Of a stretch of DNA of 64,000 nucleotides, positions 13,091-22,918 are shown one piece after another. Origin of the DNA: Nitrosopumilus sp. (lineage in GTDB: Archaea > Thermoproteota > Nitrososphaeria > Nitrososphaerales > Nitrosopumilaceae). Both the position numbers and the translations under genes were made by a program. How positions within the stretch are numbered: position 1 is the first letter of the stretch; every line of letters starts with the position of its first letter. The notes beneath the pieces were generated by a model. That model saw nothing but the letters and a program-made list of their open reading frames with translations, did not search any database and was not told the origin of the DNA. The stretch spans positions 1,440,001 to 1,504,000 of the forward strand of contig OZ242041.1 in the NCBI GenBank assembly GCA_965205215.1, given 5' to 3'.

Positions 13091-13816
13091 ATGAGCCGCA
13101 GCATTGGGACGTCGATTCCCGAGATGTTTCGCTCCGTTGATCTAGGAGGAACCATAATTGACTGCAATCTGGCGTATGCGGAGAGGCTGGGGTACACACT
13201 TGAGGAGGTAATCGGCAGGTCGTTTCTTGACCACACGCCAGAGAAATACCGCGACGCACTGGTGGCCAACTTTGAGGAATGGAAGAAGACTCGGGCGCAC
13301 TCGGCCGGGCACATAGTCCTTATGACCAAGTCCGGCGAGGAGTTCGAGGTCATGTTGGCGGCGATGAGCCTGTATGACGACCACAGGAAACTCATAGGCC
13401 GCAACTCCGTCATAAGGGAGATCGCGCACCTCGAGAAGATGAGCAGGATGTACGACGTCTCTTCAAGGGAGGGATACGAGCACCCGGAGATCCTGCACAG
13501 GTCGGTAAACTACAACGGCATCATCATAGACTGCAACCAGACGTACATTGACAGGCTGGGATACACAAAGGAGGAGGTGGTGGGCGTCAGCCTGCTGGAG
13601 CACACAGCCCCGCGCTCACGCGGTAACATAAGCGCCCACATGGAGAACTGGAGGAACGGGGTACACGACACTGCAAAGATCTGGATGCTGCGAAAGGACA
13701 AGAGCGAGTTTCTCGTGTCCCTTACCGCCACGGACGAGCGCGACGAGGACGGCGCTCTGGTCGGCAGGACCGTCGCGCTCAGGCCCATGTCGGGGCCCGC
13801 CTGCCCGGTACAGTAG
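13091..13816 (+). CDS. stand-alone tandem PAS-domain protein
   Basis: Two PAS repeats (G.IIDCN..Y..RLGYT.EEV.G.S.L.HT) each followed by a PAC segment; no output domain. Confidence 0.85.
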   Translation: MSRSIGTSIPEMFRSVDLGGTIIDCNLAYAERLGYTLEEVIGRSFLDHTPEKYRDALVANFEEWKKTRAHSAGHIVLMTKSGEEFEVMLAAMSLYDDHRKLIGRNSVIREIAHLEKMSRMYDVSSREGYEHPEILHRSVNYNGIIIDCNQTYIDRLGYTKEEVVGVSLLEHTAPRSRGNISAHMENWRNGVHDTAKIWMLRKDKSEFLVSLTATDERDEDGALVGRTVALRPMSGPACPVQ

Positions 13817-14132
13817 CCATGCGCCGCCGAGCAAGGGGCCTTCCAACAGACGGTATTCGTCATAGGCGGGTTGAGATGCAAACGGACAGACTGGGAGGCG
13901 CAAAGGGTGGCCGCATGAAGGCCGTTACGGATGAGGGGAGAGCCTGCCGGCGGGGGACAGTACGGGATGCCTTGTGGGAGGGGGGATAGTTCTGCATGAA
14001 AAACTCATGCAGGCCGGATCCTGCTTCTTGACTCGCCCCATGACGCCTGCCGGGTTCTAATGTGTTCGGATTTTGTTCCATATCCTGCCCGAACGACTAG
14101 ACTTATCAATGCATGATACGTGCGTCCTGTGG

Positions 14133-14936
14133 ATGAAGGAGCGCTTTGTCGACGTGGGGGGCCACCACATCCGCTACCTTGAGGGTGGTGATCCGACTGA
14201 CGGCACGATGGTCCTGCTGCACGGGCTTGGCGGCTCCGCGGAGCGGTGGGACAAGGTCTCTCCCATATTTGAAAGGAGGTTCAGAGTGGTGGTGCCCGAC
14301 ATGATCGGGTTCGGACTCAGCGACAAGCCGCCGTCTGACTACACGCCGGACTTTCTGACCTCGTTTCTTGGGGATTTCGTGCGCGCCACCTGCGGACAGC
14401 GCATATTCCTAGTGGGCTCGTCGCTTGGCGGCCAGGTCGCCGTCATGTACGCGGCCTCGCATCCGGCCAGCATAGACAGGCTCGTCCTAGCCTCGCCCGC
14501 GGGCACGATGAAGAGGACCACGCCGGCGTTTGACATGTATATGATGGCCGCAATGTACCCCGGCGAGCAGTCCGTGTCCAGGGCCTTTGAGGCAATGGAG
14601 GCCTCCGATCAGGGGGCGGACGCGGATCTGGTACGGGGATTCATCAAGAGGATGAGGCTCCCGAACGCAAAGATGGCGTTCATGTCGGCCGTGCTGGGGC
14701 TCAGCAACTCCGGGCTCACGGAGGCAACGCTGCACTCGATAAACTCCCCCACGCTGCTGGTCTGGGGCGAGGACGATCCCGTCGTCCCAATCCAGAACGC
14801 CGGATTCTTCCTGTCCTCGATAAGGGACTGCACCATGTTTAGAATGAAGGGCTGCGGGCACACCCCCTACGTGCAGAGCCCCGAGGCCTTTGCAAAGCGG
14901 GTGCTCGAGTTTTTGGGAAGCTCCACGGCCGGGTGA
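14133..14936 (+). CDS. alpha/beta fold hydrolase (candidate PHA depolymerase)
   Basis: LLHGLGG, PDMIGFGLS, nucleophile GSSLGG, WGEDDPVVP Asp, CGHTP His. Confidence 0.9.
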   Translation: MKERFVDVGGHHIRYLEGGDPTDGTMVLLHGLGGSAERWDKVSPIFERRFRVVVPDMIGFGLSDKPPSDYTPDFLTSFLGDFVRATCGQRIFLVGSSLGGQVAVMYAASHPASIDRLVLASPAGTMKRTTPAFDMYMMAAMYPGEQSVSRAFEAMEASDQGADADLVRGFIKRMRLPNAKMAFMSAVLGLSNSGLTEATLHSINSPTLLVWGEDDPVVPIQNAGFFLSSIRDCTMFRMKGCGHTPYVQSPEAFAKRVLEFLGSSTAG

Positions 14937-15120
14937 CCCTGCGAGCGGTTATGCATCCCAGACGTCACTGGGAGCATCCGGCCCTCCATGAGGCGGCTGC
15001 CTGCAGGGCGCGGCCAGACGTGCCCAGCCGGCCGCGCACGGACGCGTCCCCCGCCGAGTTCCCACCCCTAGTTTTGCCAGACCGGTTGCTATTTATACCT
15101 CTTATTTCACACCATTACCA

Positions 15121-15558
15121 ATGAATGGTAATAGCAACCAGTATGATCCTACAAGGATGTTCCAGGACTGGATACAGAGAGGCGGTGAGGCGCAGGCCGA
15201 GTTTGTCAAGAACTTCGGCTCGCTGATGACCGCTGCAGGCCAGACTCCGGGGACGTTCAACCCGCTTGAGACGCTGCGTCAGATGTCCGAGACGGCTCAG
15301 AGCGCGCAGTCTAGGATGATGGAGAACGTCTCTAGCATGCAGAGTAGGGGCATGGATGCCGTGATTGGCATGGGGCAGGACATGATCTCCTCCATTGCCG
15401 GCTGGGGCGCCTACAAGACCACTGTCAGCAGCAACGGGCGGATCTCCATACCGGAGGCCGAGCGCAAAGCGCTCGGAATCGGGGAGGGAGACCTGGTGCA
15501 GGTGATCATACTGCCTATTCCTAACAGACAGAAAAGGGAGGTGAACAAGCAAATATGA
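15121..15558 (+). CDS. AbrB/MazE/SpoVT-domain regulator, PhaR-like
   Basis: C-terminal TTVSSNGRISIPEAERKALGIGEGDLVQVII AbrB motif; Q/M-rich amphipathic N-terminus; PHA context. Confidence 0.8.
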   Translation: MNGNSNQYDPTRMFQDWIQRGGEAQAEFVKNFGSLMTAAGQTPGTFNPLETLRQMSETAQSAQSRMMENVSSMQSRGMDAVIGMGQDMISSIAGWGAYKTTVSSNGRISIPEAERKALGIGEGDLVQVIILPIPNRQKREVNKQI

Positions 15559-16010
15559 CTGACAAAAGCAATAACAGCAACAACAGTAGTAACAACGCGT
15601 CAAGGCCGTCTTCAAACGACACGTTTGGCGTATTCAAGCAGAACCTTGACAAGATGTTCAACGGCATTCGGCAGTCGGTACCGCAGTACCACCAGGCCAT
15701 AACAAACGTGCAGCAGGAGTACCTGCAGGCATGCGAGAACGTTGCAAACTCTGCATTTGAATTCCAGAGGGAGGTGGCGCGCAAGTCCGGACTGTCTACG
15801 GGCATCCCGGAGGCTGCAGTACGCACAATCGGCGGAACGACTGAGGAGATTGCAAAGATTGCATCCATAAACAACCAGGTCATACTGACCACGATCGATG
15901 CGACTCAGCAGAACATCAAGACGTTCAACGACAACGCAAAGTCCTTTTCAAACATCAACCACGACATACTAAAGTCCTGGATATCGGCATTCCGTTTCAG
16001 GGCCAACTAG
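15555..16010 (+). CDS. phasin-like (PhaP-like) amphipathic helical protein
   Basis: 151-aa N/Q-rich all-helical protein, ATGA-coupled to the AbrB gene, near phaEC; function inferred. Confidence 0.6.
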   Translation: MTDKSNNSNNSSNNASRPSSNDTFGVFKQNLDKMFNGIRQSVPQYHQAITNVQQEYLQACENVANSAFEFQREVARKSGLSTGIPEAAVRTIGGTTEEIAKIASINNQVILTTIDATQQNIKTFNDNAKSFSNINHDILKSWISAFRFRAN

Positions 16011-16017
16011 TCGCGGC

Positions 16018-16051
16018 AAAAAGCCCGCAAGGGCGTTTTTCTTTTATTTTT
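16018..16051 (+). terminator. terminator after phaR/phaP-like operon
   Basis: AAAAGCCC-GCAA-GGGCGTTTT hairpin followed by long T tracts. Confidence 0.7.
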
Positions 16052-16272
16052 GATTTTTTTTCTGACATTGGTTTGGCGGTATGATCCGCCGATCCGGGGT
16101 ACGCGCACTTGGTGTGCGCGCATGGCGACGCATGCATTGCAGGTGGCACCGTCCGCCACACGGGCTACCCGCCACCGCCACCCCCTTCCTAATCTTTGGC
16201 GGGCTGGTTTTCCGTACAATGGGCTGTCCCCCCTTCCTCGCAAGTCTTTAATTCTGGCACGGCCGTCCCCCC

Positions 16273-16785
16273 ATGTTGGCAAGCGAGACGGAGCCGGACA
16301 GCCTCGGGGCCGAGGATATCCGTCTGGCAATAGACGATCTGCAGGCGCGCCTGGACAAGATGGGCCCCCCGCCGTCGCCGCTTGCGGAGGTCGTGGACTC
16401 TACGAATACACTGCGTACAAACGAGTACCTCTCCGCTAGGGACGTGATATGCGCGGAGCTGCTGTCGCACTATGCTCGGTATGCGCGCATGCTCGAGTCG
16501 GTGGTGAGGGACGCGCTTGACGTGCAGTCAGGACTCTTGGAGGTGCTAAGGGCGCAGTCGGAGCTGCTTGAAGATGGAAAGCCGCCTGCCCGCACGCGTG
16601 CCGCCAAGGCCGCCAAGGGAAGGAGCAAGGGCCGCGGCAGCGGCAGCAGTGGTGACAAAAAGACTGCGGCAGCATCCGCCGGCGGGCGCAAGACCGGCGG
16701 CAGGACGCCTGCAAAAAAGAGGGTGCGGACGACAGCCAGTCCAAGGCCGGCGGCCGCGGGAAGGCCCCGCACCGGGCGGGCCTGA
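16273..16785 (+). CDS. hypothetical coiled-coil protein with basic K/R/A/G-rich C-terminal tail
   Basis: Helical N-terminal ~100 aa, then RAAKAAKGRSKGRG...PAKKRVR tail; TATA-like CTTTAATT upstream. Confidence 0.7.
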   Translation: MLASETEPDSLGAEDIRLAIDDLQARLDKMGPPPSPLAEVVDSTNTLRTNEYLSARDVICAELLSHYARYARMLESVVRDALDVQSGLLEVLRAQSELLEDGKPPARTRAAKAAKGRSKGRGSGSSGDKKTAAASAGGRKTGGRTPAKKRVRTTASPRPAAAGRPRTGRA

Positions 16786-16862
16786 CCCCTGATACACGCC
16801 ATATGCAAGAGTACGCGTACGCCGGCACCGGACGGCCGTAACTGGCACTCGCCGATCCAAGA

Positions 16863-17963
16863 TCATGCAGCGTATTCCAGGCTTCCTGCCATGAGCTCGA
16901 CCTGCCTCCGGCCGTCCCTGCCCGGACCGTCCGTTCTGACCACAAGCATGCCGCCGTCGTTTATTCGGGTGGCGGTTCCGGTGACCTTTTGGCCGTCAAC
17001 GGTTGCGCTGACCCTCCTGCCGATGGTCGACGATCTCTTGGCCCACTCCGACGTTATGGCCTTGGTCCTCCCGCCAAGCAGCATGCCGTATGCGGCGTCG
17101 AGCCTGCGGAGCATTGTTCTTACCAGCTCCACCTTGGATGGCGTCCTCGGCGTGCCGGCCGATTCGGCCTCTTGCCTGAGCGACGCCGCGCCGTAAAAAC
17201 CGGGCGTGCCTGAAAACGTTTTTTCTATGCCCTTTGCATCCACGTCAAAGTTGACCCCTATCCCGAGACGCACGTTCTGTATGCGGTCGAGCTCCATCTC
17301 GGCCTCTGTTATTATTCCCGCCACCTTTCTTCCCCGGATCGTCACATCGTTGGGCCACCTGAGCTCGGGCTTTATGCCGTACGCCTCCTCTATGGACTCC
17401 GCCACTGCAACGCCGGCCGCTATGGGTAGCAGGGACGCGGTTGCAGCCCTGCAGTCCGGATGCAGCACGACGGACATCCATATGCCGCCGCGCGGGGCCG
17501 CCCACCTCTTCCCTGTTCTGCCCCTTGCGTTGGACTGCGTGGCCGATATGACGACGGCCCCGTCGTTTCCGGGCATCCCTGCCAGAGTCGCCGCGACGTC
17601 CTGGGTGGAGCCGGCAGTGCCCACGTCATCGTAATAGTACGCCCTCTTGCCCACCGTGCTGGTCCCTATGCCCTCTGTGATCTCCCACGGGTATGGCTCG
17701 CCGCTTGAACCCCTCAGCCTGTATCCGACCTTTTGCCTCGACTCTACGTCGTATCCCAGGCTCCGCAGCGTTCTGATGTGTTTCCACACCGCCACCCTGC
17801 TGATGCCCAGCACGTCGCCAAGGTCCCTGCCTGAGAGGTATTCGGTGCTGTGCGCCTTTAGGAACCGGAGCGTCCTTGCGGGGCCACGGCGATCCGCCGA
17901 GTCGTAGTATGCGCGGCTACCGTATGCGCCGTCGCTGTTTTTGCGCCTCTTGCTATCCGGCAT
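16863..17963 (-). CDS. birA: bifunctional HTH/biotin--[acetyl-CoA carboxylase] ligase
   Basis: HTH LSGRDLG..LGISRVAVWKHI, GSTQD, Q..ARGRTGKRW, RWPND, KVAGII.E, LGIGVN. Confidence 0.93.
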   Translation of the reverse strand: MPDSKRRKNSDGAYGSRAYYDSADRRGPARTLRFLKAHSTEYLSGRDLGDVLGISRVAVWKHIRTLRSLGYDVESRQKVGYRLRGSSGEPYPWEITEGIGTSTVGKRAYYYDDVGTAGSTQDVAATLAGMPGNDGAVVISATQSNARGRTGKRWAAPRGGIWMSVVLHPDCRAATASLLPIAAGVAVAESIEEAYGIKPELRWPNDVTIRGRKVAGIITEAEMELDRIQNVRLGIGVNFDVDAKGIEKTFSGTPGFYGAASLRQEAESAGTPRTPSKVELVRTMLRRLDAAYGMLLGGRTKAITSEWAKRSSTIGRRVSATVDGQKVTGTATRINDGGMLVVRTDGPGRDGRRQVELMAGSLEYAA

Positions 17964-17968
17964 TGCTC

Positions 17969-18538
17969 TTAGAAACCAATGTCAAAGTCAAATCCTCCGC
18001 CGTCCATGCCCGCGCCGCCGTCGCCGTCCATGCCCGCGCCGCCGTCGCCGTCCATGCCCGCGCCGCCGTCGCCGTCCATGCCCTCCGGCATGCTTTCCGG
18101 CGGAACATACGAGGCCATGGGCATCCCGATCATGCTGAACATCATGCTGAACATCATAATGTCTATGACGCCAAAGAAGAGCATCATTGGGAGTATGGAG
18201 CGGTTGCTATCCATAAAGCTCCTCATCTTTTCTTTGTCACCAGACTTGTAGATGGCCTGCATCTGGCCCCACTTGGCCTGCATCTCCCGTATGCCCTCGT
18301 CTACCTTGTCCGAGCCAGACTTTGTGACGTGCAGCTCGATCTTGGTGCCCAGCCAGCCTTTCTTCTCCCTTACCGCTATGTCTCCCTGCCTCTCCAGCCT
18401 CTCGAGTATGGAGTTCAGTTCCTCGGGCGACAGCCTTGTCGTCTTTTGTATGCGGCCGAACTTTGTAATGCCGTTTCGTATGGCCTCAAGCACGATGATC
18501 TCCTTTGAAACAGGGGATCCGTCGTCGCGGTCTTCCAT
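17969..18538 (-). CDS. winged-HTH protein with hydrophobic segment and Gly/Asp/Met repeat tail
   Basis: wHTH-like N-terminus (ELNSILERLERQG..IAV), Met-rich hydrophobic stretch, GMDGDGGA repeats ending FDFDIGF. Confidence 0.75.
   Translation of the reverse strand: MEDRDDGSPVSKEIIVLEAIRNGITKFGRIQKTTRLSPEELNSILERLERQGDIAVREKKGWLGTKIELHVTKSGSDKVDEGIREMQAKWGQMQAIYKSGDKEKMRSFMDSNRSILPMMLFFGVIDIMMFSMMFSMIGMPMASYVPPESMPEGMDGDGGAGMDGDGGAGMDGDGGAGMDGGGFDFDIGF
17999..18083. repeat. 24-bp tandem repeat x3.5 (GCCGTCCATGCCCGCGCCGCCGTC)
   Basis: Exact units encoding GMDGDGGA on the minus strand. Confidence 0.95.
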
Positions 18539-18871
18539 GAGCGGGATTCTCCCGGTACCATTAAAATCTCTTTTTAATTCGTGGCGCCCACCCCTATGGC
18601 CGTTTGGCTCCGGATCGGGCGTGGGCGCCGCCATGCAGTTCCGGCGGTATCTGACCGCGCCGTACGCGGGTGGTCTGGACATCATCATGGCGCGACTGCA
18701 CGTGTACGAATACGGTACCCGCAGGGACTTGGTGTGCCCGCTGGGGGAGGGGAGTCGGATCCAAGGGCACGACCTGTTTTTATACGCTAATTGATCAAAT
18801 TATCTTGCATCAAACGATTTCGACCCGGGGGCGTATCGTCCTCCTTTGTCTAACTATTTATTATTGAAATC

Positions 18872-20452
18872 ATGATGAACCCTGCCATGACCGTTGATGA
18901 TTCTGAATTCCGGGACGCATCTGAGCACTACAAACAGCTTGCGACGTTCTGGACCGACATACTGCATCTGATGTCCAGCAAGCCTGGGGCGCTGGCATCG
19001 GTTGGGCCCATGAGGGCGCTTGCGGCAAACTCCAAGAAGATTACAAACGAGATGATAGAGATGAGTGAGGACATGGTGACGTTCAGCAAACATTTGACAG
19101 AGTATTATTCACAGCTTGCAGACACCTGGGGCGGGGCGCAAAAAAAGGTCAACCAGAAGATGTCGGACATACCACAGGACGTGGAGCAGATCGAGGCGCT
19201 CAAGCGCGTCTGGATTGACATGTTTGACAACGACTTTACCGAGCTCTTTGACTCGCCAAAGTTTGGCTCAAACTACGGCAAGCTGGTCTCAAAGGAGCTC
19301 GAGATTGTAAAGCACTGGAACAACATATCTAACACAGTGCTGCAGTCGGCCAACCTGCCAAGCAAGGAGGAGATCGACGACGTGTACCGCGAGATTCACT
19401 CCCTAAAGAAGAGGCTGAGGCTCTCAGAACTGGAGCTGCAGCGCCTGCGGCGCGCGGGTTCTAGCGCCGCTTCGAAGGGAGTGTCGGACTCGGCGCCCGC
19501 TACGGGTGTGGATAATGTACCTTCAGACCCGGAAAGGGGCGATACTCCTGCAAAGCCTGCTGCTTCCGTTGTGGCTGGCGATGGGGGCAAGCTGCAGCCG
19601 CAGGATGTTCAAGAAATGTCACAGTCGACACAACACAGACCACAGCACCAACCGCCGCAACAGCCACGCGGTGTACGGGCACAACCGCCGCGCCAGGCGT
19701 CGCAGCCTCCAGCACCGTCACGTCCGCGCGATACTGCACCATCCGGCGGCCCTGCCGAGGGACCGGCTCCCCGAGAACCGGAGAGCGGACTGCCTTCCTC
19801 AAAACCAGATTCAGTGTCTTCCCCCTCCGCACCAAGTCCGCCTGATCAACCCGGCGTCCCCCCCTCGGCACAGAACGCCAAAAACCCGAGACGACGCCGC
19901 AGGCGCCCCCGACGCAGGCTCTCAAAGTCGGGGCGGCCCGGCGGCCCCAACCCCCCCTCAATGCAGCCAGAGTCAGCGCCAAAACCCGCGCCAGTACCTA
20001 GCAGTCCAAAGGACGCGCATACTGCTGCTGTAGCGCAACATGCGCCAGATGCATCGTCCGGTTCTCTATCACGTCCACCGCAGGATGCGGCCAAACGGGC
20101 AGGGACGGCCCCTGGCGGCGCGGCAGGTGCACCTGAAGCCGCTGCCAAGAAAAAAAGGCGCAGGCGCCACAGGCCCGACAGGCATACCAGACGTATGCAG
20201 CAGCAGCAGCAACAACAACAGCCACAGCAGCAGGGGCAGTCGAGACCATCGCAGCCGCAGCCCGCCGCTGACACGCGCCCCGCGCCTTCTCAGGAGCCAC
20301 AAGACGTGCAGAATCCTGAAAACACCAACGACTCCGGGCGCCGGACGCGTGACGCCAGTGGTGATTCGGCCCGGCAGAATCCCCCCAGCAGCAAGCCCGG
20401 CACGGCCGCGGACGGTGGATTGCCCCGGAAGGACGGTGACACCGAGACGTGA
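18872..20452 (+). CDS. phaE: class III PHA synthase subunit PhaE with long low-complexity C-terminal extension
   Basis: PhaE-like core (KRVWIDMFDNDFTELFDSPKF, NLPSKEEIDDVYREIHSLKKRLR); GTGA overlap with phaC. Confidence 0.88.
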   Translation: MMNPAMTVDDSEFRDASEHYKQLATFWTDILHLMSSKPGALASVGPMRALAANSKKITNEMIEMSEDMVTFSKHLTEYYSQLADTWGGAQKKVNQKMSDIPQDVEQIEALKRVWIDMFDNDFTELFDSPKFGSNYGKLVSKELEIVKHWNNISNTVLQSANLPSKEEIDDVYREIHSLKKRLRLSELELQRLRRAGSSAASKGVSDSAPATGVDNVPSDPERGDTPAKPAASVVAGDGGKLQPQDVQEMSQSTQHRPQHQPPQQPRGVRAQPPRQASQPPAPSRPRDTAPSGGPAEGPAPREPESGLPSSKPDSVSSPSAPSPPDQPGVPPSAQNAKNPRRRRRRPRRRLSKSGRPGGPNPPSMQPESAPKPAPVPSSPKDAHTAAVAQHAPDASSGSLSRPPQDAAKRAGTAPGGAAGAPEAAAKKKRRRRHRPDRHTRRMQQQQQQQQPQQQGQSRPSQPQPAADTRPAPSQEPQDVQNPENTNDSGRRTRDASGDSARQNPPSSKPGTAADGGLPRKDGDTET

Positions 20453-21513
20453 CGATCAGCTCTAACATCGATCCAAAGCTGATCGAGGAGATTCTGAAAT
20501 TTGGCCGCAACGTCGTAAACGCGCCCCAGATGGTCTCCTCTCCGGATCAGATCATACTTGACGTGACCCGGCATGACGTGGCCTCTAGCATCGACAAGAC
20601 GCGCCTCTTACACTATAGGCCTCTGACCGAAAAACGACATGCGACGCCCCTGCTGATATCGTACGCGGTAATCAACAGGTTCCACATCCTTGACATTCAT
20701 CCCGAAAAGAGTTGGGTGCGCAGCCTGCTGCGCCAGGGCTTTGACGTGTACATGCTTGACTGGGGGACGCCCACCAGCATGGACAAGTATCTGGACTTTG
20801 ACGACTACGTGAACGGATACATGGACACTTACGTGGAATACATCAAGGACGAGTCTTCCGTAGAGTCCGTGTCTCTGCAGGGATACTGCACGGGCGGCAC
20901 CATCTCCGCCATGTATGCCGCACTCCATCCGGAGAGCGTCAGAAACTACGTGGCCACCGCGCCCGTCGTGGACGGGTGGAAGGACACCACCGTGATCAGC
21001 AATCTTGCAAAGCACATGGACGTGGACAAGATGGTCGAGACAATAGGCAACATGCCCCCCGAGTTCATGTACTATTGTTTTTCCGTGCTCAAGCCGTTTG
21101 AGCAGGGCGTCGAAAAATACGTCAATTTCTTTAGAAACATACACGACAAGCGGTTTGTGGACAACTTTCTGCGCGTCGAGAAATGGCTGGGTGACACGCC
21201 CCCAATACCGGGAGAGCTGTTCAGGCAGTGGATACGCGACATCTACCAGCGGAACCTTCTGGCCCGCAACAAGATGCACGTGGGCGGCGTGCACGTCGAC
21301 CTCAAGAGGATCACCATGCCCATGTTCATCCAGATTGCAGTAGGCGACCACCTGGTCTCGCCGGAGTGTAGCATGCCCCTGTACTCCGCCGTGGGAAGCC
21401 GTGACAAGACACTGCGCATATACCCCACCGGTCACGTGGGCATGATTGCAAGCTCCTTGTCCCAGAAGAGGGTGCTGCCCGAACTGGGCGCGTGGCTTGC
21501 AGAGCGCTCGTAA
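20449..21513 (+). CDS. phaC: class III poly(R)-hydroxyalkanoic acid synthase subunit PhaC
   Basis: TPLLISYAVINRFHILD, YMLDWG, lipase box GYCTGG (catalytic Cys), GDHLV Asp, TGHVG His; 354 aa. Confidence 0.96.
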   Translation: MTISSNIDPKLIEEILKFGRNVVNAPQMVSSPDQIILDVTRHDVASSIDKTRLLHYRPLTEKRHATPLLISYAVINRFHILDIHPEKSWVRSLLRQGFDVYMLDWGTPTSMDKYLDFDDYVNGYMDTYVEYIKDESSVESVSLQGYCTGGTISAMYAALHPESVRNYVATAPVVDGWKDTTVISNLAKHMDVDKMVETIGNMPPEFMYYCFSVLKPFEQGVEKYVNFFRNIHDKRFVDNFLRVEKWLGDTPPIPGELFRQWIRDIYQRNLLARNKMHVGGVHVDLKRITMPMFIQIAVGDHLVSPECSMPLYSAVGSRDKTLRIYPTGHVGMIASSLSQKRVLPELGAWLAERS

Positions 21514-21670
21514 CTGCGGATGTACGCGGCCGGTAAAGTAGTGGCAGGCCCCCGTCTGCAACCTGCGCGTATATTGCAGTGAGCCCGTCCTACACTGCGG
21601 ATGTTTGAACGGGGGGGGGGGGAAGAGTACACCGTTCGACTTTATTACGCAAGCATCCCTCCTCATACGC

Positions 21671-22918
21671 GTGGACGCCCGCGAGATCAAGGACGAGATT
21701 GCCAGACGGTGGCACAGGACGCTTGCGCAAGGCACCGGCACCGAAGCCGGCGGTGCGCGCACTGGGCGCGGCATGTCGGTCAGCGGTTCGACGCCGCCCT
21801 CGGTGTTCGTGGGCTCGTACGGGTATCCCAAAGTGTACGTGGGCCCCATGGTGCCCCCAGTACACGGCGATACTGCGATATTTGACAGCCCCGAAAGATG
21901 GCGGGGACTCTCGCTTGGCGATATCGTGGGCCTGAGGCTTGGGATGATCCGCGGGGTGAGGCAGGTGCGCTCCGATCTGACCGGCTCCGGAGGGGACAGC
22001 CGGTACGTGGAGCAACTGCAGGAGGTCGCCATGTCCTCGGCCCCTCTCGGATCGGACATCTCCTTTGAGGGGCCCGTGCGAGTCAGGACCGCCCGAAATA
22101 ACTACAGTGATGACACGGGAACCCCCTTTGGGCCGATCGGGCTGGTGCGTTCCGCAGAGTTCTCGGACATGCCGCGTCCCTCGAGGCAGATCGAGAAACT
22201 GTACTATGACACGGATGCGAACGCATCGGATGCAATGTTCTCGCTGTACGAGTCGGGCGTCGCCATGTCCGACATACAGAGATGTCTCAGCATTGGAATG
22301 CTCGGCTCAAGGCGCAGGCTGGTTCCGACAAAATGGAGCATTACGGCGGCCGACTCTGCGATATCCTCCCGGCTGCTTGGGCATGTGAGCGAGTGCGACG
22401 TGATAGATTCGTGCAGGGTCTTTTGCCACGAGCACCTTGGAAACGCGTTTGCGGTGGTGCTGTTTGAGAACCGGTGGCTCTTTGAGCTGGTGGAGGCGTG
22501 GCATGCGCCGGCCCCCGATGGCGGCAGCAGCGGTAGCGGCAGCGCTTCAAAGGCCGCGGGACGGGCATCATTTGCCTCAGACTGGGAGACCTCGCACCTG
22601 CAGCGCGCGCCTCAGAACACGGCGGGGGCATACTATGCGACCCGGCTCGGGGTTCTGGAGTATTTGGCAGAGAGACACGTGCAGGCCGGCGCGCTGGTGC
22701 TGCGGGAGATCCGCCCCGAGTATTCTGTGCCCGTGGGCGTATGGCAGGTGCGCGAGGGCGTCAGGGCCGCGATGAAGAACCCTGTCGCGGTGGCAGACAG
22801 CATGGCCGATGGCGTGCGGCTTGCCGCGTCCGCCACGGGCATTGACGCATCCGACTGGCTCGGACACGCCGATACCACAAGGCTTGCAAGACAGCGCACG
22901 CTCGGGGACTATGCATAG
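21671..22918 (+). CDS. nreA: Nre family DNA repair protein
   Basis: GSTPPSVFVGSYGYPKV.VGP, RRLVPTKWSITA.D, GAYYA.RL, PVGVWQVRE, C-terminal PIP box QRTLGDY; start set at GTG 21671 behind a TATA. Confidence 0.9.
   Translation: MDAREIKDEIARRWHRTLAQGTGTEAGGARTGRGMSVSGSTPPSVFVGSYGYPKVYVGPMVPPVHGDTAIFDSPERWRGLSLGDIVGLRLGMIRGVRQVRSDLTGSGGDSRYVEQLQEVAMSSAPLGSDISFEGPVRVRTARNNYSDDTGTPFGPIGLVRSAEFSDMPRPSRQIEKLYYDTDANASDAMFSLYESGVAMSDIQRCLSIGMLGSRRRLVPTKWSITAADSAISSRLLGHVSECDVIDSCRVFCHEHLGNAFAVVLFENRWLFELVEAWHAPAPDGGSSGSGSASKAAGRASFASDWETSHLQRAPQNTAGAYYATRLGVLEYLAERHVQAGALVLREIRPEYSVPVGVWQVREGVRAAMKNPVAVADSMADGVRLAASATGIDASDWLGHADTTRLARQRTLGDYA

Follow-up and report, generated by a model that had tools for sequence, protein, structure and literature searches.

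Do ammonia-oxidizing archaea (AOA), which are credited with only the polyhydroxyalkanoate (PHA) synthase subunits PhaE and PhaC plus generic beta-oxidation-type enzymes (PMC4084955, PMC6790972, PMC11082331), also encode proteins that regulate, coat and mobilize a PHA store? The question is raised by a 64,000-nucleotide stretch of a Nitrosopumilus sp. genome (contig OZ242041.1, positions 1,440,001 to 1,504,000, hereafter the window), in which a gene with an AbrB domain and a gene for a small helical protein precede phaE and phaC. A sequence-only reading of the window had taken the two for an unrecognized granule regulator and phasin of the haloarchaeal type, completing a full PHA system. Our results suggest that the window probably carries a rearranged copy of a five-gene AOA PHA-granule module (hydrolase, phaR-like, phasin-like, phaE and phaC) that works by the mechanism proposed below. 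We assign the regulator to the haloarchaeal PhaR kind as a new member, and the hydrolase is an unreported candidate depolymerase. The kinship to PhaR and the linkage to phaEC claimed by the sequence-only reading stood, whereas homology to haloarchaeal PhaP and the words unrecognized and complete had to be given up.

Distribution and gene order of the module

We searched 300 genomes of Nitrososphaeria with four queries; 236 of them belong to the AOA-order families f1 to f6 and 64 to nine other families. Three unpublished genomes (G132, G230 and G282) are among those counted, and no conclusion rests on them. PhaC was found in 221 of the 236 AOA-order genomes and, as two weak matches below the cut-off, among the 64 others. 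The phasin-like protein was present in 216/236, often with two to eight matches per genome, and the PhaR-like protein in 212/236 as a single copy, both with 0/64 in the other families. The hydrolase (E ≤ 1e-20) occurred in 219/236 and in 3/64 (E 1e-37 to 1e-26). All 15 AOA genomes without PhaC, which represent nine genera and are 92–100% complete, also lacked the PhaR-like protein, the phasin-like protein and the hydrolase, and a phasin-like or PhaR-like gene without PhaC was seen in none of the 300 genomes. Phylogenetic profiling against phaC, which the sequence-only reading had proposed, thus finds the pair present and lost together with phaC in the AOA order. PhaC was accompanied by no phasin-like match in five genomes, all drafts (G251, G258, G220, G285 and G298), and by no PhaR-like match in G251, G258, G158 and all six genomes of genus g26.

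The source genome is a single contig of 2.10 Mb. The module and its signals in the window are as follows.

14073–14936, + strand: alpha/beta hydrolase of 287 aa with a GSSLG serine motif, first gene of the conserved module (open reading frame (ORF) listing and family scans)
15092–15097, + strand: TATA-like box TTTATA, 24–29 nt ahead of the phaR-like ATG
15114–15132, no strand: inverted repeat of 7-5-7 form, ATTACCA-ATGAA-TGGTAAT, spanning the phaR-like start codon; hypothetical candidate PhaR operator
15121–15558, + strand: phaR-like gene, 145 aa, with predicted helices at residues 10–41 and 48–93 and a C-terminal AbrB/SpoVT DNA-binding domain at about 96–133
15555–16010, + strand: phasin-like gene, 151 aa, amphipathic, with three helices at residues 23–41, 47–78 and 86–146 in the structure model
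16023–16063, + strand: short GC hairpin of 4 bp (16023–16034) followed by T runs (16036–16063), found by eye
18872–20452, + strand: phaE (PF09712, 44.8 bits against a cut-off of 25.7)
20449–21513, + strand: phaC, catalytic subunit of a class III synthase (TIGR01836, 400.3 bits against a cut-off of 365.3), with the lipase-box-like motif GYCTG

The AbrB-domain gene overlaps the gene of the 151-aa protein by ATGA at 15555–15558, and from the stop codon of the latter (16008–16010) to the start of phaE there are 2.86 kb with three other genes. All elements of the arrangement described from sequence alone, an AbrB gene coupled to a small helical protein about 3 kb before class III phaE-phaC, are in place.

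The gene order was compared in 20 loci chosen for diversity, 18 centred on phaC and two on a phasin-like match, with the genes located by tblastn. In 11/20 loci the series hydrolase-phaR-phasin is convergent with phaC-phaE and abuts phaC, and the AbrB gene lies less than 5 kb from phaC in 16/20. Linkage of the pair to phaEC elsewhere, whose failure would have spoken against the sequence-only reading, therefore extends across the AOA order. The hydrolase, which that reading had missed, is a conserved part of the module, immediately preceding the AbrB gene in 15/20 loci and neighbouring phaC in a sixteenth (L012). The same L012 has the phasin gene ahead of phaR, about 4 kb from phaC; in L006 phaR abuts phaC and the phasin-like gene had no match in the locus; and three loci of genus g24 read hydrolase-phaR-phaC, with no PhaE-like match beside phaC for the query used. 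The arrangement of the window recurs in L005. When the window is set against L003, its left flank is collinear with the common order, while phaE-phaC is inverted and has moved past a conserved block of a small ORF, BirA and a winged helix-turn-helix (wHTH) gene. The window is a rearranged copy of the module, and the separation of about 3 kb is derived, most relatives having the operon abutting phaC. The window itself is thus ordinary, since the module is found in most relatives.

A relative of haloarchaeal PhaR and its promoter

The AbrB domain, at residues 99–129, scores above both curated cut-offs (TIGR01439, 31.6 against 28.3 bits; PF04014, 25.1 against 24.7 bits). In a BLASTP comparison the phaR-like protein is 63% identical to PhaR of Haloferax mediterranei across a 38-aa AbrB core (E 3e-15). 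The generic AbrB model finds seven places in the source genome, whereas Haloferax PhaR as a query finds a single place in the 2.1 Mb, which is the phaR-like gene (E 2.3e-11, query residues 19–103 of 110). In the reverse direction, a search of 72,556 plasmid records with the phaR-like protein gave six matches, each of them annotated as a haloarchaeal AbrB gene; four of the six lie about 1.1–1.3 kb from phaC on the same record (Halogeometricum, Haladaptatus, H. larsenii and one H. mediterranei record). The kinship is therefore specific and not generic, because Haloferax PhaR matches one of the seven AbrB loci and the plasmid search returns only the six haloarchaeal genes. Judged by these matches, the AbrB gene is clearly a specific relative of the characterized haloarchaeal PhaR, beyond a generic AbrB likeness, and the thaumarchaeal granule regulator of the sequence-only reading gains its kinship from BLASTP and from the reciprocal genome and plasmid searches.

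The match to the Halogeometricum AbrB gene covers residues 49–133 of the phaR-like protein at 46% identity. Orthologues in other AOA families (L012–L015 and L019) have 102–118 aa, close to the 110 aa of Haloferax PhaR, and their C-terminal domains are nearly identical to that of the latter. Homologues of both proteins of the pair carry names from Nitrosopumilus, Nitrosarchaeum and "Marine Group I thaumarchaeote". Haloferax PhaR is described in reviews (PMC7137286, PMC9049629) as an AbrB-type, granule-associated protein whose gene is co-transcribed with phaP and whose AbrB-like domain serves to repress the phaRP promoter. Like the PHA-responsive autorepressor PhaR of H. mediterranei (GAP12), the AOA protein has its AbrB-like domain at the C-terminus, 63% identical over 38 aa, and its gene leads a two-gene operon whose second, overlapping gene encodes a helical protein of about 150 aa; the operon is linked to class III phaEC. 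The annotated order on H. mediterranei pHM300 is maoC, AbrB gene, phaP, phaE, phaC. The two systems differ in that the Nitrosopumilaceae form has an additional 35–40 aa or so at the N-terminus (145 against 110 aa) and the N-terminal halves align weakly; moreover, the AOA operon is mostly convergent with phaC-phaE, whereas the haloarchaeal operon lies upstream in the same direction, and the AOA locus has no adjacent maoC/phaJ gene.

The TTTATA box at 24–29 nt before the ATG, read as a promoter element, implies a leaderless or near-leaderless mRNA, and in 12 other loci of family f1 (Nitrosopumilaceae-like) a corresponding TTTAAATA/TTTATATA box is found equally far from the start, as judged by eye. 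The inverted repeat at 15114–15132 falls under the pattern ACCW-N5-WGGT, which occurs nine times in the window against 2.24 ± 1.46 in shuffled sequences. It is found at −4 in 9/13 family-f1 phaR-like starts (the window and the 12 loci), three more being one base off by eye, and at −33 in the family-f5 locus L019. The phaRP promoter of H. mediterranei has it at −61, adjoining ACCA repeats spaced by about 10 bp; a review describes four tandem repeats in that promoter as the presumed PhaR site (PMC9049629). We hypothesize, and only hypothesize, that the 15114–15132 repeat is a PhaR operator.

RNA-library contigs from two studies, which prove neither transcription nor a single transcript, whose depths were not used to rank genes and whose uncovered parts are uninformative, give a weak hint of a leaderless bicistronic phaR-phasin message. 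A contig of 892 nt from X19, 95% alike, covers 15120–16005 across the phaR-phasin junction, and X20 contigs, 100% alike, cover 15243–15525 and 15790–15946. Cover in X19 falls to 0.51 in 16032–16285, and other contigs of this library lie in the small ORF (16275–16520) and in the wHTH gene (18218–18538). The sequence-only reading had closed the operon with a terminator. The hairpin and T runs are there to the eye and are the likely end of the phaR-phasin transcript, whereas the terminator scan gave no site after 16010, because the stem is below its limit of five pairs.

The phasin-like protein, the hydrolase and the synthase

The 151-aa protein has several attributes of a phasin in the functional sense: it is small, amphipathic and helical, it is encoded with pha genes, and its homologue in Nitrosopumilus maritimus is abundant. 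Its mean helical hydrophobic moment of 0.372 exceeds the 0.209 ± 0.029 of 500 shuffled sequences (z 5.7), with z 7.8 for Haloferax PhaP. The abundance comes from the available part of the N. maritimus proteome supplement (PMC11082331), in which three adjacent accessions are listed: PhaC WP_012215374 (8 peptides, intensity 7.5e8), the phasin-like WP_012215375, that is A9A3F6/Nmar_0992 (142 aa, 7 peptides, 67.6% coverage, intensity 3.3e10), and the AbrB protein WP_012215376 (141 aa, 2 peptides, intensity 1.65e8). In these rows, which, given peptides ending in E, we take to come from a single digest, the intensity of the phasin-like protein is about 44 times that of PhaC. A paralogue, Nmar_1590 (164 aa, "Phasin domain-containing protein"), has an intensity of 6.1e9 in the same part of the supplement (PMC11082331). 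Carbon-rich PHA-like granules and a PHA Raman band were reported for N. maritimus, and the PHA gene list of that paper holds only PhaE, PhaC, BdhA, a hydratase and two dehydrogenases (PMC11082331).

No Pfam or NCBIfam family was matched above cut-off by the 151-aa protein in the family scans of the window. Its own family comprises 432 representative clusters at E ≤ 1e-3. Among 51 members, Pfam Phasin_2 (PF09361) is the commonest match below threshold (12/51, best E 0.0052), with PhaP_Bmeg (PF09602) in 2/51 and apolipophorin-III in 3/51; the latter is also the best match of the family profile in the PDB (E 0.0025). These signals are weak, yet they agree in theme and point towards bacterial phasins and coats of lipid droplets. 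Since no family cut-off is reached, we file the protein in no phasin family. In view of its context, its amphipathicity, the abundance in a relative and the sub-threshold likeness to bacterial phasins, it most likely acts as a phasin outside the haloarchaeal PhaP family. The likeness extends to size, helicity, amphipathicity, frequent paralogues and a place next to phaC, all shared with bacterial phasins (Phasin_2 PF09361, PhaP_Bmeg PF09602), although no scanned AOA member attains the gathering score.

The small protein had been taken for a PhaP of the haloarchaeal type, and this part of the sequence-only reading failed in BLASTP and in the profile-profile comparison that it had itself suggested, which found no relation. 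PhaP of H. mediterranei (154 aa) nevertheless occupies the same place, downstream of phaR and overlapping it, is of the same size class, has strongly amphipathic helices as well and is likewise abundant relative to the synthase, the AOA side of this being taken from the N. maritimus homologue. It differs in charge: the 151-aa protein is not acidic (D+E 13, K+R 15), whereas Haloferax PhaP is (35 and 12). In a review, homologues of PhaP are said to occur only in haloarchaea (PMC9049629). The claim that the pair is unrecognized was also too strong, for the N. maritimus homologue Nmar_0992 already goes by "Phasin family protein" in UniProt and some UniRef entries are named alike; the RefSeq name of WP_012215375 is "hypothetical protein". 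The family is expanded in some genomes, with eight matches in the Nitrososphaeraceae-like genome G171 (3.4 Mb) and two to eight in many others; the source genome has one.

The hydrolase scores 104.9 bits with PF00561. Against NF050089, the model of intracellular short-chain-length PHA (scl-PHA) depolymerases, it reaches 79.7 bits, far below the cut-off of 300. Its closest solved relatives are meta-cleavage-product (MCP) hydrolases (1j1i, E 1.2e-30), and the match to the poly(3-hydroxybutyrate) depolymerase 8ynv (E 7.4e-18) is confined to residues 25–145. With the intracellular scl-PHA depolymerases (NF050089, 8ynv) it shares the alpha/beta fold, the GxSxG serine motif and a length of about 290 aa. 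The known haloarchaeal depolymerase is patatin-like (PMC7137286) and so differs in fold from the AOA hydrolase. We propose the latter as a candidate intracellular PHA depolymerase, on the grounds of synteny and co-occurrence.

The synthase qualifies as class III PhaEC: phaE and phaC overlap by 4 nt, and PhaC has the cysteine lipase box GYCTG. PhaC is 39–43% identical to haloarchaeal PhaC, and the PhaE core (residues 14–183 or so) is 46–74% identical to PhaE of 12 family-f1 loci. The PhaE of the window has a low-complexity tail of about 330 aa (19470–20452), rich in P, S, Q, R and A, which still ends in the overlap with phaC; the length of PhaE is 188–220 aa in most loci and 500 aa in L005 (G012), which also has the gene order of the window.

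The sequence-only reading had seen no PhaB or MaoC in the window, and this holds for the whole genome as well. No MaoC/PhaJ domain was detected genome-wide at E ≤ 0.01, and none of the five short-chain dehydrogenases/reductases that match the PhaB model attains its cut-off of 302 bits, the best having 129 bits (genome positions 447013–447681). With no MaoC and no clear PhaB to supply (R)-3-hydroxyacyl-CoA in this autotroph with a 3-hydroxypropionate/4-hydroxybutyrate cycle, the designation of the system as complete or full was an overstatement.

Proposed mechanism, competing explanations and neighbouring genes

In the mechanism that we favour, PhaEC would polymerize hydroxyacyl-CoA into granules, whose surface would be coated by the 151-aa amphipathic protein, made in bulk and acting as a phasin. 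The 145-aa protein would be the AOA counterpart of haloarchaeal PhaR, with its C-terminal AbrB domain binding its own promoter and repressing the presumed leaderless bicistronic phaR-phasin transcript, possibly at the candidate ATTACCA-N5-TGGTAAT repeat that spans the start codon. The N-terminal half of the 145-aa protein, which is helical, may bind granules, so that a growing surface would titrate the repressor and release phasin synthesis. The upstream hydrolase, as a candidate depolymerase, could mobilize the PHA store.

Several observations weigh against this interpretation. The co-occurrence counts overstate the support, because related genomes are not independent, although the joint absences are spread over several genera despite the kinship among genomes. 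In genus g26 (G138, G170, G185, G227, G231 and G285) PhaC and the hydrolase are found in 6/6 and the phasin-like protein in 5/6 genomes, with the PhaR-like protein in 0/6 (E ≤ 1e-5); this genus may have lost or replaced the regulator. Three loci of the Nitrososphaeraceae-like genus g31 have phaE-phaC alone, the phaR-like and phasin-like genes being 37–670 kb away. Structure models are of low confidence for both the phaR-like protein (pLDDT, the predicted local distance difference test, 52) and the 151-aa protein (an all-helical AlphaFold model with three helices, pLDDT 61). The latter has no detectable BLASTP similarity to haloarchaeal PhaP (E 31), and hhalign of the AOA family against eight PhaP proteins gave probabilities of 0.67% (16 sequences) and 3.8% (51 diverse members), the PhaP profile of eight proteins being so shallow that a deeper one might yet reveal a link. 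Among Atlas clusters that carry a Pfam name, the four closest to the 151-aa protein all belong to PHA-granule families (PhaP_Bmeg, PHA_synth_III_E, PHB_acc and Phasin_2), which speaks for a phasin character, but their scores of 0.84–0.88 are all below the 0.9 line, with a low recognition value for the query. The Phasin_2 gathering cut-off of 24.9 bits is attained by none of the family members scanned, and the window protein has no match to it at E ≤ 1; a search with the Phasin_2 profile found 0/101 genomes of the order above cut-off and no match in the source genome at E ≤ 1. This genome search is unusable as proof, because its matches are at noise level and the control gave matches in 10/14 genomes; all three weak Phasin_2 matches in G171 fall on genes of the phasin-like family, and 0/3 do so in G138. 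As for the operator, the exact N5 pattern is missing in 8/19 starts examined, including all f2 and g24 loci, and a confounder in family f1 is the overlap between the repeat and the conserved M-N/S-G-N codons. The N. maritimus proteome gives abundance and not granule location, and our literature search found no granule proteome of any AOA.

A first rival explanation keeps the AbrB protein as a regulator and makes the 151-aa protein a PHA-linked accessory or activator of the synthase, similar to PhaM, to the PhaE subunit or to the class IV PhaR subunit, instead of a coat. It would fit with the phasin-like gene abutting phaC in most AOA, with PHA_synth_III_E (score 0.87) among the nearest Atlas clusters, and with L006, where phaR abuts phaC and there is no phasin-like gene, and the g24 loci, where the query used found no PhaE-like match beside phaC. 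We nevertheless consider it unlikely, as PhaE is also present in the window, two to eight paralogues per genome are usual for phasins, and an intensity about 44-fold over PhaC in the available N. maritimus rows suits a stoichiometric coat better than an enzyme subunit. A role unconnected with PHA, in which a general regulator and a small structural protein stay near phaEC merely through inherited order in a slowly rearranging lineage, is quite improbable in our estimate. Synteny among genomes of one order does reflect common descent, several loci also keep the unrelated BirA and wHTH genes as neighbours, and the genes at issue are dispersed in genus g31. Such inertia is, however, at odds with the loss of regulator, small protein and hydrolase in 15/15 PhaC-lacking genomes from nine genera, and with the finding that, outside AOA, the regulator is most closely related to haloarchaeal PhaR genes, themselves next to phaP-phaEC. 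The name of the best Pfam match of the AbrB protein, MazE_antitoxin (PF04014), and the overlapping two-gene operon with the AbrB gene first could also suggest a toxin-antitoxin-like module of an AbrB/MazE-type antitoxin and a small toxin. This we regard as very improbable: the PhaR-like gene is single-copy in 212/236 AOA-order genomes with 50–70% identity within the family, a breadth and stability unusual for such modules, some 95 helical residues precede its AbrB domain at the C-terminus, the 151-aa partner matched no toxin family in Pfam or NCBIfam, and this partner is, in the part of the proteome available, among the more intense proteins of a healthy culture.

The five-gene granule module with a PhaR-type regulator and a phasin-like coat remains our preferred explanation. 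With regard to its origin, we regard it as possible rather than probable that AOA and haloarchaea have a PHA control unit in common, through shared ancestry or lateral exchange, in which a PhaR of the AbrB type acts on ACCA/TGGT repeats at its own promoter and is coupled to class III PhaEC, and that AOA recruited a divergent phasin family of up to eight paralogues and, as a new type of intracellular PHA depolymerase in archaea, an MCP-hydrolase-like alpha/beta hydrolase. What is new here is a regulator with an experimentally characterized relative, an abundant candidate coat protein and a candidate depolymerase, which are inherited and lost with PhaC. Our literature search, with subscription journals outside its coverage, found no paper that names a phasin, PhaR or depolymerase in AOA. 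If the interpretation is true, the full carbon-storage cycle of making, coating, sensing and degrading would be encoded by very abundant archaea in one five-gene module, and three of its five genes would be missing from the published AOA lists of PHA genes. AOA are among the most abundant microbes of oceans and soils, and carbon banking by them bears on survival under ammonia starvation. Four or five of these genes together form a simple marker set by which AOA genomes can be scored for PHA capacity.

The flanks of the module and the genes enclosed in it are listed below.

13091–13816, + strand: double-PAS protein, upstream flank of the module
16273–16785, + strand: small ORF with a basic low-complexity tail (ORF listing)
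16863–17963, − strand: BirA (ORF listing and family scans)
17969–18688, − strand: wHTH-like protein with a weak DUF4423 match
21605–22918, + strand: archaeal Nre protein (N- and C-domain), downstream flank of the module

DNA nearly identical to positions 14000–21600 of the window occurs in sponge-metagenome runs and in several organisms, from 13 studies, and the source genome is probably that of a sponge-associated archaeon; phaEC was reported to be lacking in another sponge symbiont (PMC6790972). In the wHTH-like protein, GMDGDGGA repeats form a run at the C-terminus and there is also a hydrophobic stretch; it is a conserved neighbour of BirA in several loci. The small ORF at 16273–16785 resembles noise because of its basic tail, yet its first 90 or so residues are kept at 33–41% identity beside BirA; this N-terminal part is conserved in five loci (L003, L006, L020, L021 and L022), with a weak sixth match in L004.

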